In this document: one piece after another, positions 26,180 to 58,842 of the stretch
Position numbering within the stretch: the stretch's first letter is position 1
Layout of the letters: every line of letters starts with the position of its first letter
Origin: an uncultured Pseudomonadota bacterium
GTDB lineage: Bacteria > Pseudomonadota > Alphaproteobacteria > Rs-D84 > CASDRH01
Length of the DNA stretch: 64,000 nt
Assembly (NCBI GenBank): GCA_949283075.1
Contig: CASDRH010000038.1
Span: forward strand, 44,483 to 108,482
Direction: 5' to 3'
Program-made: the position numbers and the translations under genes
The notes under the pieces: generated by a model
What the model was told of the DNA's origin: nothing
What the model saw: the letters and a program-made list of their open reading frames with translations, nothing else
Database searches by the model: none

Positions 26180-26433
26180 TTGCAAAAGGTATAAAAAATT
26201 TTATAATACGGATTGGGTTATTTGATATGACCTGAGGTTTGATAGCCTCCATACGAAGTGCCGGCCAGCGCAATGCTGGAAGGTGGTAAAATAAATCATT
26301 AACACAGATTTTTATCTGTGCTCTTGGTGGTGAATATACCACACTATCTCTTCGTATAGCTATCAACTTCCAGTCTGTGAACTGAAAGATGGTTCATTGA
26401 TTCGTTTAATAAAAAACAAGGAAGGAAAGAGCT
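26180..26433 (+). promoter_or_regulatory. Sigma70 promoter (TTGCAA 26180-26185, 16 nt, TATAAT 26202-26207) plus conserved ~220-nt structured 5' leader (copy A) of the cysteine-rich protein cassette
   Basis: The promoter and leader are conserved in all four leader copies in the window. The leader contains CCAGC-loop-GCTGG, GCTGGAAGGTGGTAAAATAA, a variable hairpin, GGTGGTGAATATACCACACTATCT, and AACTTCCAGC, which is complementary to GCTGGAAG. Confidence 0.6.
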
Positions 26434-26979
26434 ATGGAAAATAAGAAAAATAGAAAAGTAAAATTATTTTTATTAGAAATGATTGTTTTAGGAGTTTTTA
26501 ATTTTGTTGGAATAGAGCATGTATTTGCTCAAGATAAAAAAGAAACGCATATAACTATAAAAAAAGGATTAAATGATGAATTCCTTATTTTAAGTGGTAA
26601 TGGTCCAGATGTGGAAGTTTATGAATGCGTTGAAAAGGTATGTGTTGAGACTCAATATTGGTGTGACCCTGGTGTTATTAATTATACTTTAAAAGTTGAT
26701 AGTAGAGTTTGTGGAAATGGAGGAAAAGGAGATCATCCTCAACATGTAAATCTATATCCTGAGGATAATTGTCAGGCTAAAAAAGCGGTACATGTTTTTT
26801 GGAATTATAAAAAAGCTGATTGTGATTGGACAGATGAAGTATTTGGATCTCCGGATTATAAGAAATCGAAATGTTCTAAATATAAGTGCATAGCTTGGAA
26901 AGCTCCAGCAGATAAAGTTTTATCTTTGATGCCTCTTATTGGACAAGCAATGATTGATGTAAATTTAATTGAATATTAG
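26434..26979 (+). CDS. Cysteine-rich secreted protein, LIEY-tail family member 1
   Basis: A signal peptide is followed by about 12 Cys. The C-terminal tail is KAPADKVLSLMPLIGQAMIDVNLIEY. It is a paralog of 37172-37714, with N and C termini nearly identical and a divergent core. Confidence 0.7.
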   Translation: MENKKNRKVKLFLLEMIVLGVFNFVGIEHVFAQDKKETHITIKKGLNDEFLILSGNGPDVEVYECVEKVCVETQYWCDPGVINYTLKVDSRVCGNGGKGDHPQHVNLYPEDNCQAKKAVHVFWNYKKADCDWTDEVFGSPDYKKSKCSKYKCIAWKAPADKVLSLMPLIGQAMIDVNLIEY

Positions 26980-27064: not shown

Positions 27065-27130
27065 CAGCTGGAAAGTTTGTAAGTTCATAGCACAACCTCC
27101 TTATTTCCTTTCCAGCTGGCCTTTTATTTA
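27065..27130 (+). terminator. Intrinsic terminator with a perfect 11-bp stem and a conserved loop (family copy A)
   Basis: The stem is CAGCTGGAAAG/CTTTCCAGCTG. The loop is tttgTAAGttcataGCACAACCTCCTTAtttc. A T-run follows. Confidence 0.6.
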
Positions 27131-27167
27131 TCTTAATTTAATCTTTTCTAATTTTCTTAAACACTAC

Positions 27168-27467
27168 TTGCAAAAAAATAAAAAAAATCTATAATACGAA
27201 GCAAGTCATTAAAAATTAATGGCCCGAAGGCGTAGAAACCTTTATACAGTAGTAGCCGACCAGCGCAATGCTGGAAGGTGATAAAATAAAAACCAACGTC
27301 TTTGAAAGTGCATTTTTTGCATTTTTATAGGTATCGGGTAATATATCACGCTATCTTCTACTGTATAGTTTCTAACTTCCAGCTGTGAAGTTAAGAAAAG
27401 TAATTTTTTGTTTTTGCTTTTTTTGTTTCTCGGCTTTTGTGAATTTTTATAAGGGAAGGAAAAAGCT
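27168..27467 (+). promoter_or_regulatory. Promoter (TTGCAA 27168-27173, 16 nt, TATAAT 27190-27195) plus conserved structured 5' leader (copy B)
   Basis: The CCGACCAGCGCAATGCTGGAAGGTG...AACTTCCAGC architecture is the same as copy A, with a different central hairpin. Confidence 0.6.
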
Positions 27468-28082
27468 ATGGTAAAAAATAAAATGAATAATAAAACAAAA
27501 TTATTTTTATTTGAGGTGTTTGTTTTTAATTTTTTTTCTCTAATTGGAATTGATTTGGCATTTTCTGAAGAATTAAGTACAAAAGCAGTTTTAAAAAGAG
27601 AGGGACAAAATTTAGTTTTATCTGCAAATAATAAAAATTATAAGTTAAGTTGTAAAACTCCAGGTTGTATTGTTTATAAGTGTGCTCAGTATGGATGTAA
27701 GGATGGAAAACATTATATATCTGGGGAAACATCAGGGGTTAATACAAAATTTACTGCTGAATTTTATGGCTGTAATAATGTAGACAATAAGGTTGTTTGC
27801 TCATTTAGGCCAGGAGCTGTTGGTGGGTGTGGGGATCAAGGTACTCATTGGAAAACAATGGAAAATGGAAATTGTTCAACAGAGTCATTTACTTATTTTG
27901 CTGGTCATCCTATTACGTTTTGTAATAATGGATGGATTAGATTTACTGCTACTCCTTTTTGTGTTCGAACTGAATGTATGACACAGGGATGTACAGAATG
28001 GGAAATAAATGGAAAAGATTTCTTAGCATTATTTCCATCAGTTGGTATGGCTACAATAGATCCAAATAATATAGAATTTTAA
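27468..28082 (+). CDS. Cysteine-rich secreted protein, LIEY-tail family member 2
   Basis: A signal peptide and many Cys are present. The C-terminal tail is CTEWEINGKDFLALFPSVGMATIDPNNIEF. Confidence 0.65.
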   Translation: MVKNKMNNKTKLFLFEVFVFNFFSLIGIDLAFSEELSTKAVLKREGQNLVLSANNKNYKLSCKTPGCIVYKCAQYGCKDGKHYISGETSGVNTKFTAEFYGCNNVDNKVVCSFRPGAVGGCGDQGTHWKTMENGNCSTESFTYFAGHPITFCNNGWIRFTATPFCVRTECMTQGCTEWEINGKDFLALFPSVGMATIDPNNIEF

Positions 28083-28937: not shown

Positions 28938-29003
28938 TCAGATGAGTGAGTTTTTAAGTTCATAGCACAACCTCCTTATTTCTCATTCATCTGACTTTTT
29001 TTA
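28938..29003 (+). terminator. Intrinsic terminator with a 13-bp stem (one G.U wobble) and a conserved loop (family copy B)
   Basis: The stem is TCAGATGAGTGAG/CTCATTCATCTGA. The loop is tttTAAGttcataGCACAACCTCCTTAtttct. A T-run follows. Confidence 0.6.
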
Positions 29004-29096: not shown

Positions 29097-29138
29097 GCCG
29101 AAGAATGATTTTTTTATGCACAACCTCCATTCTTCGGC
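29097..29138 (+). other. Additional hairpin carrying the same conserved loop motif (perfect 11-bp stem GCCGAAGAATG/CATTCTTCGGC, loop containing GCACAACCTCC)
   Basis: Read from the sequence. It lies about 100 bp downstream of the copy-B terminator, before the valS 3' end. Confidence 0.5.
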
Positions 29139-31941: not shown

Positions 31942-32010
31942 AAGGCCAGCTGGAAAGGAAATAAGGAGGTTGTGCTATGAACTTACAAACTTTCCAGCTG
32001 ATATTGTGTT
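31942..32010 (-). terminator. Intrinsic terminator of family member 4; reverse-complement copy, nearly identical to copy A
   Basis: The reverse complement of 31940-32040 matches 27030-27125 almost base for base. Confidence 0.55.
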
Positions 32011-32052: not shown

Positions 32053-32580
32053 TTAGTATTCAATTAAGTTTGGGTCTACACGAGAGATACCAATTTCTGG
32101 CATAGCTTTTAATATGTCCATTACATCAAGTTCAATGTATTCAACTTCTCTGTTATTAAAATGATTTGGGTCGCTACTTGTGCTATACATTACACTTCCA
32201 TCAGAAAATTTATGTTCGTATACATCTTTATTTGTGCAATCACTCCATTCTCTTCCATCTATTGTTGATCCTAATTTTGTATACTTTCCACAGAATACTA
32301 TGTTTTGCCAACCTCTATTAGATGATGGGGGATTAATAGAATCATTGAAATTTAGTAGATTTCTACAATTTGAAGTATCAGTAGTACAAAATTTTGTAAC
32401 AGATACTGCTTTACCTTTGCTATATCTTAATTTAATTTTTTGTGATTGTTCTTGAGCTTTAATGTATTGATTACTTGATAAGCATAGAATTGCAATAAAC
32501 ATAAAAGTGATTTTTGCAATTTTGCTTTGTAATTTATTTTCTTTAAAAATACTTGTTTTTTTATTTACTATTTTTTCCAT
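32053..32580 (-). CDS. Cysteine-rich secreted protein, LIEY-tail family member 4
   Basis: A signal peptide is present. The C-terminal tail is VEYIELDVMDILKAMPEIGISRVDPNLIEY. Cys are distributed through the core. Confidence 0.65.
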   Translation of the reverse strand: MEKIVNKKTSIFKENKLQSKIAKITFMFIAILCLSSNQYIKAQEQSQKIKLRYSKGKAVSVTKFCTTDTSNCRNLLNFNDSINPPSSNRGWQNIVFCGKYTKLGSTIDGREWSDCTNKDVYEHKFSDGSVMYSTSSDPNHFNNREVEYIELDVMDILKAMPEIGISRVDPNLIEY

Positions 32581-32834
32581 AGCTTTTTCCTTCCTTGTTT
32601 TTTAGTTTAACAAAAACTGACTACTTTCTTTCAGCAATCAGCTGGAAGTTGAGAACTATGTAAGCTTTATAGTGTGGCATATTCACCACCAAAGGCGCCG
32701 GTTTTCCAGCGTTAATGACTTATTTTACCACCTTCCAGCAATTTATAGCTGGTCGGCTTGCTTACTAAGGCTCTCACACCTCGGGTCGTATTTCGACTTA
32801 GTTTTTATTATAGTTTTTTTTATATCTTTTGCAA
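32581..32834 (-). promoter_or_regulatory. Promoter (TTGCAA 32829-32834 and TATAAT 32807-32812 on the minus strand, 16-nt spacer) plus conserved structured 5' leader (copy D)
   Basis: The reverse complement contains CCGACCAGCtataaattGCTGGAAGGTGGTAAAATAAGTCATTAAC...GGTGGTGAATATGCCACACTAT...AACTTCCAGCTG. Confidence 0.6.
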
Positions 32835-34441: not shown

Positions 34442-34670
34442 TTTTTATTGTTATTTATGTTTTTTGTAAAGTATTATTTGATATTTATTTTTGCTTATAT
34501 TTTTTATTTATTTTTTGATTTGTTTTGTCAATTCTTTTTGTCAAAAAATGCTTGCGGTGATTTTTAATTTTTTGTATAATTCGTCTTATCTGGTTTTTAC
34601 TCAGAATTGTTAAAAGGAATTTTCCATAACATTTTTTGCGTTGGAAAGGGAATATAAAAAGGAAGGAAAA

Positions 34671-35417
34671 ATGAAAAAAGAAAATAATAAAAACTTATCT
34701 AAAAATAATAATGTAACAAATAAGGCTCAGGTTGCTTATTTCTTGTGGTTAGAAAAAGGTTGTCCAGAGAGTATGGAAGAAGCTGTTTATATGTCAGTTG
34801 CTGATCGTCAATGTCCAGCTGGCGTTGATAAAGCAATATGGGATAACGCAAAAGCTAGATTAGCAAAACGTGTTTATGAAATAGCTAATATTAAAAAAGC
34901 TGTTGCTAATGAAGATAAAGTTGAAACTTTGAAATCTGATGTTTCAGTTGATAAAAAAGCAGAAGTTAAGAAACCAGAAGCAAAGAAAGTTGTAAAAGCT
35001 GTTAAAAAAGCAAAAGCAGTTGCTAAAAAGGTTGAAAAGAAAGTTGAAGCTAAAAAAGCTGAAATTAAAGCTGTTGTAAAAGCAGAAGTTAAGAAACCAG
35101 AAGCAAAGAAAGTTGTAAAAGCTGTTAAAAAAGCAAAAGCAGTTGCTAAAAAGGTTGAAAAGAAAGTTGAAGCTAAAAAAGCTGAAGTAAAGAAGATTGC
35201 TGAAAAAGCTAAAGCTCCAGTTATTTCTATTGTTAAAAAAGAAGAAGTAAAAAAAGCTGTTAAATCTGTTAAAGCTAAATCCTCTTCATCTAAACCAGCG
35301 AAGAAAATCGTTAATAAGGTGAAGAAAAATGATCCGCTTACAGAAGCTTTGAATAAAGCAGAAAGCAAAATTGTTTCTATTACAAATCATAATTTGAAGA
35401 AAGTTGTAAATAAATAA
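34671..35417 (+). CDS. Histone H1-like Lys/Ala-rich repeat protein
   Basis: An AAGGAAGG SD precedes the ATG at 34671. The C-terminal two thirds is AKKVEKKVEAKKAE-type repeats. Confidence 0.55.
   Translation: MKKENNKNLSKNNNVTNKAQVAYFLWLEKGCPESMEEAVYMSVADRQCPAGVDKAIWDNAKARLAKRVYEIANIKKAVANEDKVETLKSDVSVDKKAEVKKPEAKKVVKAVKKAKAVAKKVEKKVEAKKAEIKAVVKAEVKKPEAKKVVKAVKKAKAVAKKVEKKVEAKKAEVKKIAEKAKAPVISIVKKEEVKKAVKSVKAKSSSSKPAKKIVNKVKKNDPLTEALNKAESKIVSITNHNLKKVVNK
34959..35204 (+). repeat. Perfect tandem duplication with a 123-nt (41-aa) period, of which about 105 nt are identical, inside the histone-like gene
   Basis: gcagaagttaagaaaccagaagcaaagaaagttgtaaaagctgttaaaaaagcaaaagcagttgctaaaaaggttgaaaagaaagttgaagctaaaaaagctgaa occurs twice, at 34959 and 35082. 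Confidence 0.85.
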
Positions 35418-36905: not shown

Positions 36906-37171
36906 TTGCAAAATTATCATAAAAAACTATAATTGTTTTTTGATTGGGGGATAAACCAATCAGAGGTGTCAGAGCCTTTACATCAAGTAACCGACCGGCG
37001 ATTTGCTGGAAGGTGGTAAAATAAGTCATTTGTCGTGCTGTCTTTCAGTGCGCGTCTTTTGTGGCGAATATGCCACACTATCTCTTGATGTATAGTTCTG
37101 AACTTCCAGCTGTTAGCTGAAAGGTTGATGGCGTTTTTTGTTAATTAAATAAAAAATAGGGAGTGTGAGCT
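36906..37171 (+). promoter_or_regulatory. Promoter (TTGCAA 36906-36911, 16 nt, TATAAT 36928-36933) plus conserved structured 5' leader (copy C)
   Basis: CCGACCgGCGatttGCTGGAAGGTGGTAAAATAAGTCATT...GtGGcGAATATGCCACACTATCTCTT...AACTTCCAGCTG is present. Confidence 0.6.
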
Positions 37172-37714
37172 ATGGAAAATAAAAAGAATAGAAAAGTAAA
37201 AATATTTTTATTTGGAGTGTTTATTTTAGGAGTTTGTAATTTTGTTGGATTAGAGCAAGGTATTGCTCAAGATAAAAAAGAAACGCATATTACTATAAAA
37301 AAAGGTTTAAATGATGATTTTATTATTTTAAGTGGTAATGGTCCGGATGTGAGAATTGCTGAATGTGCTGAAAAGGTATGTGTTCAGATGAGTTATTGGT
37401 GTGATCCGGGTAGTGTTGGATATATTCATGATGTGAATAGTGATGTTTGTGGAAATGGTGGAAGAGGGAAACATCATAAAACAGCATATTTAGATTATAA
37501 TAGTAATTGTCAAGCTAGAGTAAGAACTAAAACTAGTTATAAAACTTGGGAAGGTTGTTATGATTTATATTCAATAGTTGGCTCGCCATCTTATAAGAGA
37601 TCTGGATGTTCTAAATATAGATGTATAGCATGGAAAGCTCCAGCAGATAAGGTTTTATCTTTGATGCCTCTTATTGGACAATCAATGATTGATGTTAATT
37701 TAATTGAATATTAG
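37172..37714 (+). CDS. Cysteine-rich secreted protein, LIEY-tail family member 5 (close paralog of member 1)
   Basis: The N-terminal 50 aa and C-terminal 30 aa are nearly identical to member 1, and the core is divergent. Confidence 0.7.
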   Translation: MENKKNRKVKIFLFGVFILGVCNFVGLEQGIAQDKKETHITIKKGLNDDFIILSGNGPDVRIAECAEKVCVQMSYWCDPGSVGYIHDVNSDVCGNGGRGKHHKTAYLDYNSNCQARVRTKTSYKTWEGCYDLYSIVGSPSYKRSGCSKYRCIAWKAPADKVLSLMPLIGQSMIDVNLIEY

Positions 37715-37773: not shown

Positions 37774-37826
37774 ACGACTTGTGAGTAATTTTTGCACAAC
37801 CTCTTATTCACAGGTCGATTTTTTTA
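37774..37826 (+). terminator. Intrinsic terminator with a 14-bp stem (two G.U/U.G wobbles) and a conserved loop (family copy C)
   Basis: The stem is CGACTTGTGAGTAA/TTATTCACAGGTCG. The loop is tttttGCACAACCTC. T7 follows. Confidence 0.55.
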
Positions 37827-58611: not shown

Positions 58612-58842
58612 ATGAAAAAAATATTATTTACTTTATTAGCAGTTTTGCTTTCTGCAAATATTGTTATGGCTCAAGAAGGCCCTGAAGGTAAAGGAAAAGG
58701 TAAAGGCGGAAAAATGCCTCCTGAATGTAAAAAATGTTTAGAAGATAATGGTATGGTTAAAGGTGATAAAGCTTCTATGAAAGCTGCTCTTGAAAAATGT
58801 CAAGCAGAATGCCCAAAACCTGAAGCTGCACCTGCTGAATAA
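58612..58842 (+). CDS. Small secreted peptide (76 aa), gene 4 of 7
   Basis: An extended -10 TGTTATAAT at about 58530 and the SD GGAGGA are present. It encodes MKKILFTLLAVLLSANIVMAQEGPEGKGKGKGGK...CQAECPKPEAAPAE. A terminator lies at 58863-58900. Confidence 0.55.
   Translation: MKKILFTLLAVLLSANIVMAQEGPEGKGKGKGGKMPPECKKCLEDNGMVKGDKASMKAALEKCQAECPKPEAAPAE

Follow-up and report, generated by a model that had tools for sequence, protein, structure and literature searches.

In the thiM thiamine pyrophosphate (TPP) riboswitch, which acts on translation, the helix that closes the aptamer frees or sequesters the Shine-Dalgarno (SD) sequence. The subject of this work is a leader found in four copies in a stretch of 64,000 nucleotides (nt) of contig CASDRH010000038.1, hereafter called the window, each copy extending to the start codon of a gene that encodes a secreted cysteine-rich protein. 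Similarly to translational riboswitches such as that of thiM, the leader places in the 5' untranslated region (UTR) a multi-helix aptamer-like domain closed by a helix P1; the P1 3' strand is also complementary to the SD, the two predicted states are nearly isoenergetic, and a conserved core is combined with a variable expression platform. It differs from them in lacking any riboswitch match in Rfam, in being seen in one lineage only, and in preceding genes for secreted hypervariable proteins instead of metabolic or transport genes. The leader is a real, previously uncatalogued structured RNA that stands in a one-to-one relation with the transcription units of a hypervariable secreted-protein family, and it is presented here as a candidate for a new class of cis-regulatory RNA.

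The orphan riboswitch motifs that have come out of surveys are catalogued in Rfam; the leader, in contrast, matches no Rfam motif, occurs in many copies in one genome (at least 10 types), and is accompanied by a conserved 3' hairpin antisense to the ribosome-binding sites of the family. With the orphan riboswitch candidates and lineage-restricted leaders of comparative-genomics motif surveys (PMC1950547, PMC6429828) it has in common that it is defined by covariation, 5' UTR position and gene association alone. Rfam 15 at gathering thresholds gave no match in the whole window, and its E-value mode, applied to leaders of types A, B, F and J, returned only noise (10-20 bits against thresholds of 41-95), so that the failure of an earlier note on this DNA to recognise any named riboswitch class was borne out; nor was any tRNA, tmRNA or other Rfam-detectable RNA gene found in the 64 kb. 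Of what is generally expected of a riboswitch, a conserved and covariation-supported structured domain in the 5' UTR is found, whereas genes for the metabolism or transport of a ligand are not, all the leader-associated genes belonging to one secreted cysteine-rich family.

Resemblances to two other kinds of leader were also weighed. With T-box leaders the element shares its length, its structured character and the presence of alternative terminator- or antiterminator-like pairings, and its GGUGGU(A) is reminiscent of the T-box core GGGUGGUACC. The T-box model RF00230 gave no match even at E <= 10; the UGGU segment pairs internally with ACCA and covaries with it (CGAU:AUCG in type I), and is therefore not a conserved site for the tRNA acceptor end; unlike in T-box leaders, no Specifier-loop architecture was found, and no aminoacyl-tRNA-related cargo follows. 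The T-box reading was rejected on these grounds. Alternative hairpins ahead of a possible terminator are also known from the trp and his leader-peptide attenuators. Leader-peptide attenuation was rejected, since direct reading of the sequences revealed no open reading frame (ORF) common to the copies: the short ORFs in A, B and E differ, D has no AUG-initiated ORF, and C has only a four-codon ORF starting with TTG.

Fold and covariation of the leader

The window contains exactly four instances of a 20-mer, GCTGGAAGGTGRTAAAATAA (at 26275, 27270 and 37005 on the plus strand and at 32739 on the minus strand), against 0.02 occurrences in shuffled sequence, and the four leaders can be aligned over about 230-280 nt with a mean column identity of 70%. 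All four copies described in the earlier note are present (Table 1) and alignable over their whole length, and the sequence blocks quoted there were all located in the copies with some deviations: copy A has CCGGCCAGC, and AACTTCCAGTCTG in place of ...AGCTG, copy B has GGTGAT and ATCGGGTAATATATCACGCTAT, and copy C has CCGACCGGC; of a quoted 12-mer only three copies exist in the window, copy A being the one that deviates. Copy B is the most divergent of the four, its P4 arm being longer and the stretch ahead of the SD being extended by U-rich sequence.

Contigs with family genes were fetched from ENA/Logan metagenome assemblies and all belong to one project. Covariance models were built from copy A (R1/R2), and a later one (R3) from 13 sequences. 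Searched with the copy A models, the fetched contigs had a leader immediately ahead of each family gene or operon for which sufficient upstream sequence is available, and every model match in the loci examined directly precedes a family gene. At least 11 sequence types are recognised (A-D in the window, E on contig L010, F, G, H and I on L070, J on L068 and K on L077), whose scores range from 247 down to 21 bits with the single-sequence model and from 198 to 60 bits with the 13-sequence model. The latter detected no further copy in the window; a weak R1 match at 58840-58891 (8.8 bits, E = 0.88) disappeared with the better R3 model and was taken as noise.

The whole folded leader comprises about 190 nt, of which about 150 nt form the conserved aptamer-like domain. 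A hairpin of variable sequence, P0, lies at the 5' terminus and is followed by a long closing stem, P1-P2, that leads into a three-way junction with P3 and with an arm made of P5', P6 and P4. P1 pairs GAGGU-n-U-NNNN-GC with GC-NNNN-A-ACUUC; P2 has 6-12 base pairs (bp) and a different sequence in each type; P3 consists of CC-GA-CCAGC, a loop and GCUGG-AA-GG, with a conserved 2x2 purine internal loop. Directly after P3, the UGGU of P5' pairs with an ACCA about 50 nt downstream, P6 joins RUCAU to GUGGY, and P4 is a variable hairpin. The internal loop between P5' and P6 carries a near-invariant AAUA on both strands (AAAAUAA / GAAUAU), and the segment CRCUAU connects P5' back to P2.

The helices were proposed from reading the sequences and then tested on model-based alignments. 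Standard pairs occupy 94.3% of 890 pair cells in 17 distinct sequences, as against 30-45% when the 3' partners are slid by 1-3 columns, and 39 of the 54 pairs have changes on both sides; none of 500 shuffles reached any of the observed measures, and the 13-sequence alignment gives the same covariation picture. These helices also came out of RNAalifold, where the covariation term was -10.7 kcal/mol. Leaders folded as single sequences exceed shuffled ones in stability (z = -5.6 for copy D, and -3.5), and the minimum free energy (MFE) structure of copy D reproduces P0-P4 together with a local P5 hairpin. The pairing of P3 reaches 99%, and its changes in types J and K are compensatory: the outer C:G pair becomes A:U in J, and K has CUGAU:AUUGG instead of CCAGC:GCUGG, while its P6 reads GCUGA:UUGGC. 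P5' is 100% paired and shows compensatory changes in B (GUGAU:AUCAC) and I (GCGAU:AUCGC). In P1, the change of AACUUC to AAGUUC in type J is matched by a G to C change in the 5' strand, and in P2, P4 and P0 wholly different yet complementary sequences can be read in the raw sequence of each type. Numerous G-U pairs are found on the sense strand, which assigns the structure to the RNA that is transcribed with the gene. Taken together, these comparisons support the fold well.

The structural proposals of the earlier note stand in part. Strong covariation supports the view that the 5' leader is a structured RNA on its sense strand; the hairpin that varies in sequence and stays self-complementary is present in every copy and corresponds to P4; and the retention of helix pairing through compensatory changes means that conservation does not merely reflect recent duplication. 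Its helix map was incomplete, the long-range P1 and P2, which are the main architecture, having been missed. The local P5 hairpin that it had drawn (GGTGGTGAATAT..CCAC, in full GGUGGU-GAAUAU-ACCAC) is paired in 85-88% of cases and is less well supported than the long-range UGGU:ACCA (100%) and RUCAU:GUGGY; it fails in B, F and I and was discarded in favour of the better-pairing, covarying P5' and P6. The CTAT...ATAG element flanks the 3' strand of P2, so that CTAT and ATAG cannot pair with each other while P2 is formed.

The predicted transcription start site (TSS) of each leader lies about 7 nt past a promoter match (TTGCAA, 16 nt, TATAAT; 10/12), and the two hexamers are common to all four leaders and to most of the related types, suggesting a sigma-70-type promoter that would transcribe the leader together with the downstream secreted-protein gene. 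A promoter of its own, a terminator-like end in some types and the many copies per genome could also be those of an independent trans-acting small RNA gene, or the element could be a repeat or mobile element acting at the DNA level; this family of explanations is highly improbable. The gap between the hairpin and the SD is only about 25-40 nt in most types and contains no promoter match in the scans, so that the gene must be transcribed through the element, and orientation and position are fixed relative to the family genes. No flanking repeats or transposase genes accompany the element, and its G-U pairs are strand-specific.

Predicted alternative pairings around the ribosome-binding site

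None of the 11 types deviates from the segments UUCCAG and CUGGAA. The final five pairs of P1 involve (C/G)UUCC, in which UUCC never varies and a G in first position is confined to type J, and this same segment is also complementary to the SD (GGAAG, GGGAG or GGAGG); about 45 nt separate CUUCCAG from the downstream SD of copy A, AAGGAAGG. In Boltzmann ensembles of full leaders, CUUCC is predicted to pair with either the 5' GAGG strand or the SD region. The SD is favoured, at probabilities of 0.6-0.98, in A, A2, B, C, D2, E and H (in type A the pairing with the initiation region reaches 0.98), and P1 in D, F, G, I and J. Constrained folds place the two states 0-5 kcal/mol apart in 11 of the 12 leaders folded, with the SD as the best downstream partner of CUUCC in 10 of the 12. 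The conserved GCUAUG at the start codon offers, in seven types, a further possible pairing with CAUAG at the P2/P1 boundary. The downstream platforms vary among the types while the core is kept, a pattern of constant core and heterogeneous platforms that is that of riboswitch families.

Because CUUCC can pair with the P1 strand or with the SD and the two states are nearly isoenergetic, the reading favoured here is that of a translational switch, a lineage-specific cis-acting 5' leader that would toggle between closure of P1 and masking of the SD by CUUCC; we give it a probability of roughly 45%. In the first state the base of P1 would be closed (GAGG:CUUC) and the ribosome-binding site free; in the second CUUCC would sequester the ribosome-binding site, with two small hairpins nested between, and in several types CAUAG:CUAUG at the start codon would add to the sequestration. 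An effector, which could be a small molecule, a protein or an RNA, would stabilise the junction and loops and shift the balance so as to keep P1 closed, and such a shift would co-regulate the whole gene family. A cis-regulatory role of the leader is likely, and it is the precise switch and its effector that we infer.

A number of points weigh against this reading. The two-state model rests on thermodynamic prediction only, and no covariation of its own speaks for the CUUCC:SD pairing, since any CU-rich segment complements any SD. In the ensembles of G, I and J, and mostly in those of D and F, P1 is closed and the SD is not paired with CUUCC; in type J the alternative partner of the segment is the downstream GAACUU and not the SD. 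The alignments from which pairs were counted had been fitted to the model, which inflates pairing somewhat, and the covariation reflects divergence between paralogs and not phylogenetic depth, because the copies are all paralogs or alleles of one population. Finally, the regulated genes, being secreted and hypervariable, give no metabolic clue to the effector.

In the main rival reading the leader is an attenuator and would control transcription rather than translation. With P1 closed, a hairpin formed from ...CAGC after CUUC and followed by a U run would terminate transcription, making the leader an OFF switch, and with P1 open CUUCCAGC would pair with the downstream GCUGAAAG (GAAGUU in B, GAGGUU in G, GAACUU in J) and block termination. 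A consensus scan finds terminator-like sites in C and D of a strength comparable to that of other terminator-like sites of the region, such as the one just after serS: in copy D the hairpin and U run (32643-32609) lie immediately 3' of CUUCC, and in copy C they occupy 37109-37142. Visual inspection adds E, F, G, H and K to the types with a hairpin and a U run. The stem of helix 8 covaries, with double changes in 6 of 6 pairs and 90.6% of cells paired, and the anti-P1 hairpins track the change of AACUUC to AAGUUC in J and are perfectly complementary in B, where AACUUC can pair with the downstream GAAGUU, and in G. Against these observations, no site in A or B passes the scan, J lacks a U run, folds of full leaders pair the U run with an A run ahead of the SD, and the CUUCCAGC:GCUGAAAG hairpin has a probability of at most 0.11 in the ensemble; attenuation is judged rather unlikely. 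The translational and terminator mechanisms could coexist, and in several types the first downstream hairpin with its U run could serve as an attenuating terminator in addition to the switch at the SD.

The earlier note had also proposed mutually exclusive pairings, in which GCUGG pairs either with CCAGC, as in P3, or, as GCUGGAAG, over a long range with CUUCCAGC. The idea of alternative pairings retains its basis in a conserved core with variable platforms that allow them; the partner that had been named is disfavoured. CUGGAA and UUCCAG are, as said, invariant throughout; J and K have A:U in place of G:C as the flanking pair (the other flank being U-G in J), the complementarity extends to 10 bp in G and 9 bp in I, and the 3' hairpin after genes A and D is made of the same two arms. 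In the ensembles, however, pairing of CUUCC inside the aptamer has a probability of 0.00 in all types. It crosses P1 and P2, with which it cannot coexist, and would require the whole covariation-supported fold to open, and P3 is itself nearly always paired and compensated in J and K. The GCUGGAAG:CUUCCAGC pairing thus appears sterically and thermodynamically disfavoured in these models, and a switch built on it is very unlikely.

The gene family and the exchange of cargo behind the leaders

The family proteins have a signal peptide, a hypervariable cysteine-rich middle part and a conserved C-terminal module of about 35 amino acids (aa) that ends in (V/I)DPNLIEY and follows the pattern ...C-x4-C-I-x-W...L-S-x-M-P-x-I-G-x3-I-D-x-N-L-I-E-Y. 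No Pfam or NCBIfam domain was matched by them, and an AlphaFold model of a family protein, all-beta and of modest confidence (predicted local distance difference test score, pLDDT, 65.6), found no match in the PDB; the gene context therefore yields no ligand candidate. In public data the family is very small, comprising 11 clusters by a word-indexed search of 5.8 billion sequences and 24 clusters at 50% identity by a full hidden Markov model (HMM) search of 1.84 billion representatives. A literature search on the protein motif or on a comparable RNA returned nothing. The earlier statement that a leader lies upstream of every family gene holds in so far as each of the four leaders precedes one; the window has five family genes, and B2, which starts within a few bases of the end of gene B, has no leader of its own. 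A type II secretion or pilus-like cluster lies near the family genes on contig L070 and a MacB/OEP efflux-like cluster on L068.

Table 1. Positions in the window of the leaders, their promoters and helices, the family genes and the 3' hairpins (paired strands are separated by a slash).
Feature	Position	Strand	Remark
Promoter of unit A	26180..26207	+	TTGCAA, 16-nt spacer, TATAAT; 10/12 match
Leader copy A	26208..26433	+	predicted TSS to base before ATG; models R1/R2: 244-247 bits
Copy A, P0	26216-26221/26227-26232	+	
Copy A, P1	26234-26246/26359-26370	+	
Copy A, P2	26251-26258/26350-26357	+	
Copy A, P3	26261-26269/26275-26283	+	
Copy A, P5'	26284-26287/26338-26341	+	
Copy A, P6	26295-26299/26327-26331	+	
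Copy A, P4	26304-26309/26314-26319	+	
Copy A, AACUUCCAG	26365..26373	+	3' end of P1; candidate switching / anti-SD segment
Copy A, downstream hairpin H1	26377-26382/26392-26397	+	
Gene A translation initiation region	26418..26436	+	AAGGAAGG SD ... GCUAUG
Family gene A	26434..26979	+	181 aa; C-terminus ...MPLIGQAMIDVNLIEY
3' hairpin of unit A	27065..27118	+	arms CAGCUGGAAAG/CUUUCCAGCUG; loop ...UUCAUAGCACAACCUCCUUAUUU; U-rich tail
Promoter of unit B	27168..27195	+	10/12 match
Leader copy B	27196..27467	+	core 27203-27414; 125.6 bits with R3
Family gene B	27468-28082	+	204 aa
Family gene B2	28085/28097-28852	+	operon with B behind one leader
3' hairpin 1 of unit B/B2	28938..28994	+	different complementary arms; loop GCACAACCUCC; U-run tail
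3' hairpin 2 after B2	29097..29138	+	same loop motif
3' hairpin of unit D	31947..32000	-	same 54-nt sequence as after gene A
Family gene D	32053..32580	-	175 aa
Leader copy D	32581..32806	-	core 32613-32799; 155.3 bits
Promoter of unit D	32807..32834	-	10/12 match
Promoter of unit C	36906..36933	+	10/12 match
Leader copy C	36934..37171	+	core 36941-37138; 154.5 bits
Family gene C	37172..37714	+	180 aa
3' hairpin of unit C	37775..37817	+	different arms; loop UUUUUGCACAACCUC; U7 tail

The window was compared with three other strains. Orthologous leaders are 99-100% identical between strains in four comparisons and housekeeping genes 98-99%; family genes A and B are 77-78% identical, D 94% and B2 87-98%. 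The divergence of gene A is concentrated in about 180 nt of its core, which is 46-55% identical, the flanks being 90-100% identical. At the D locus (window 32053-32806), two contigs (L073:1888-3595 and L074:3664-7266) carry other cargo, a family gene of 190 aa and a gene of 300 aa, preceded by a chimeric leader that joins a D-type core to an A-type platform, which points to recombination or inversion between family cassettes. Near-identical leaders thus stand over divergent or exchanged genes, so that the leader has been conserved while its cargo was swapped, and this argues for selection acting on the leader itself.

Side by side with these comparisons, gene A was seen to fall into two allele classes (26434-26979 in the window versus L008:8394-8936, L015, L016 and L073). 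Hypermutation of the type driven by diversity-generating retroelements (DGR) was considered and rejected, the substitution spectrum between gene A alleles being mixed and not adenine-specific; no reverse transcriptase is listed in the Pfam annotations of the fetched loci. On L074, B and B2 follow the D locus directly, with no valS between them. One strain lacks 75 nt (L015:9090-9110, corresponding to window 27118-27195) and with them the unit B promoter, so that the gene A 3' hairpin runs directly into the beginning of leader B; this is a natural promoter-less variant.

The exchange of cargo also bears on the possibility that the leader is constitutive and does not switch at all, that it stabilises the mRNA, sets translation efficiency or binds a housekeeping factor, and that at the DNA level it serves in addition as a conserved homology anchor for the exchange of variable gene cores. 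The cargo does differ behind near-identical leaders, both in the gene A core and at the D locus, a chimeric leader exists, and gene content offers no clue to a ligand. A mere stabiliser could do without some 150 nt whose junction and loop nucleotides are nearly invariant, and without an invariant segment complementary to both the 5' strand and the SD, and DNA homology alone leaves the compensatory changes between paralogs unexplained; a constitutive leader is accordingly judged unlikely.

The distribution of the leader appears narrow. The two most conserved blocks gave only 51 single matches, in unrelated taxa, among 185,579 species-representative genomes, and these are taken as chance because none fits the covariance model. 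Three-block patterns gave no match in two scans of Joint Genome Institute (JGI) metagenomes or in one scan of viral contigs. The leader has so far been seen in one uncultured lineage. The window has 27% G+C and encodes argS, lpxA, valS, serS, L25, rpoD and gatCAB as well as a TrcR-family regulator (PF06242), an alphaproteobacterial marker; these features suggest an AT-rich Gram-negative bacterium, probably alphaproteobacterial. It is a reduced bacterium and probably lives in association with a host. At 34641-35417 lies a tandem-repeat gene rich in Lys, Ala and Glu (KKAEVKK... repeats). All six fetched serS contigs (L001-L006) begin about 390-510 nt upstream of serS, in or just after this gene, which apparently breaks assemblies.

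The 3' hairpin and what the leader may mean for the family

A hairpin closes every family unit in the window; its arms differ from unit to unit and yet remain complementary, and its loop has 25-30 nt. The loop carries GCACAACCUCC(UUAUUU), whose five exact copies all lie shortly after a family unit and on the gene strand, and similar 3' elements follow family genes elsewhere (L010:10723, L010:16027 on the minus strand, L070:6993, and L073). The loop is the reverse complement of the ribosome-binding region of the family (GGAGGUUGUGCUAUG in types G, I and J), and also resembles the anti-SD tail of 16S rRNA. The duplex predicted between the loop and the SD-to-AUG region of its own gene has -16.6 kcal/mol, and those with the paralogs E, J, I and G have -24 to -33 kcal/mol, the best, against type G, having up to 18 contiguous bp and about -33 kcal/mol.

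The 3' hairpin may be a relic of inverted gene starts, or it may be a functional anti-ribosome-binding-site element that acts in cis or in trans. It could further be speculated that the leader is a true sensor, of a new riboswitch or factor-binding class, through which one signal governs the whole family, and that the 3' loops silence the mRNAs of paralogs in trans by way of their ribosome-binding sites, as a mutual-exclusion or dosage circuit; this extension is doubtful. If it were true, a 5' switch combined with a 3' anti-ribosome-binding-site decoy would be functionally analogous to the control of antigenic variation. We know of no prior description of RNA-RNA cross-talk of this kind within a gene family.

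For RNA comparison in general, the present case indicates that strong covariation can be obtained from the paralogs of a single metagenomic population. If confirmed, the leader would be a riboswitch-like RNA class with an unusual regulon of non-metabolic genes, controlling every examined unit of a rapidly diversifying family of secreted disulfide-rich proteins, and the pairing of a 5' leader with an anti-ribosome-binding-site 3' hairpin hints at RNA-RNA cross-talk within that family. Natural variants are at hand in the compensatory types J and K and in the promoter deletion of L015; the leader would offer a testable handle on how such bacteria co-ordinate families of effector or surface proteins.

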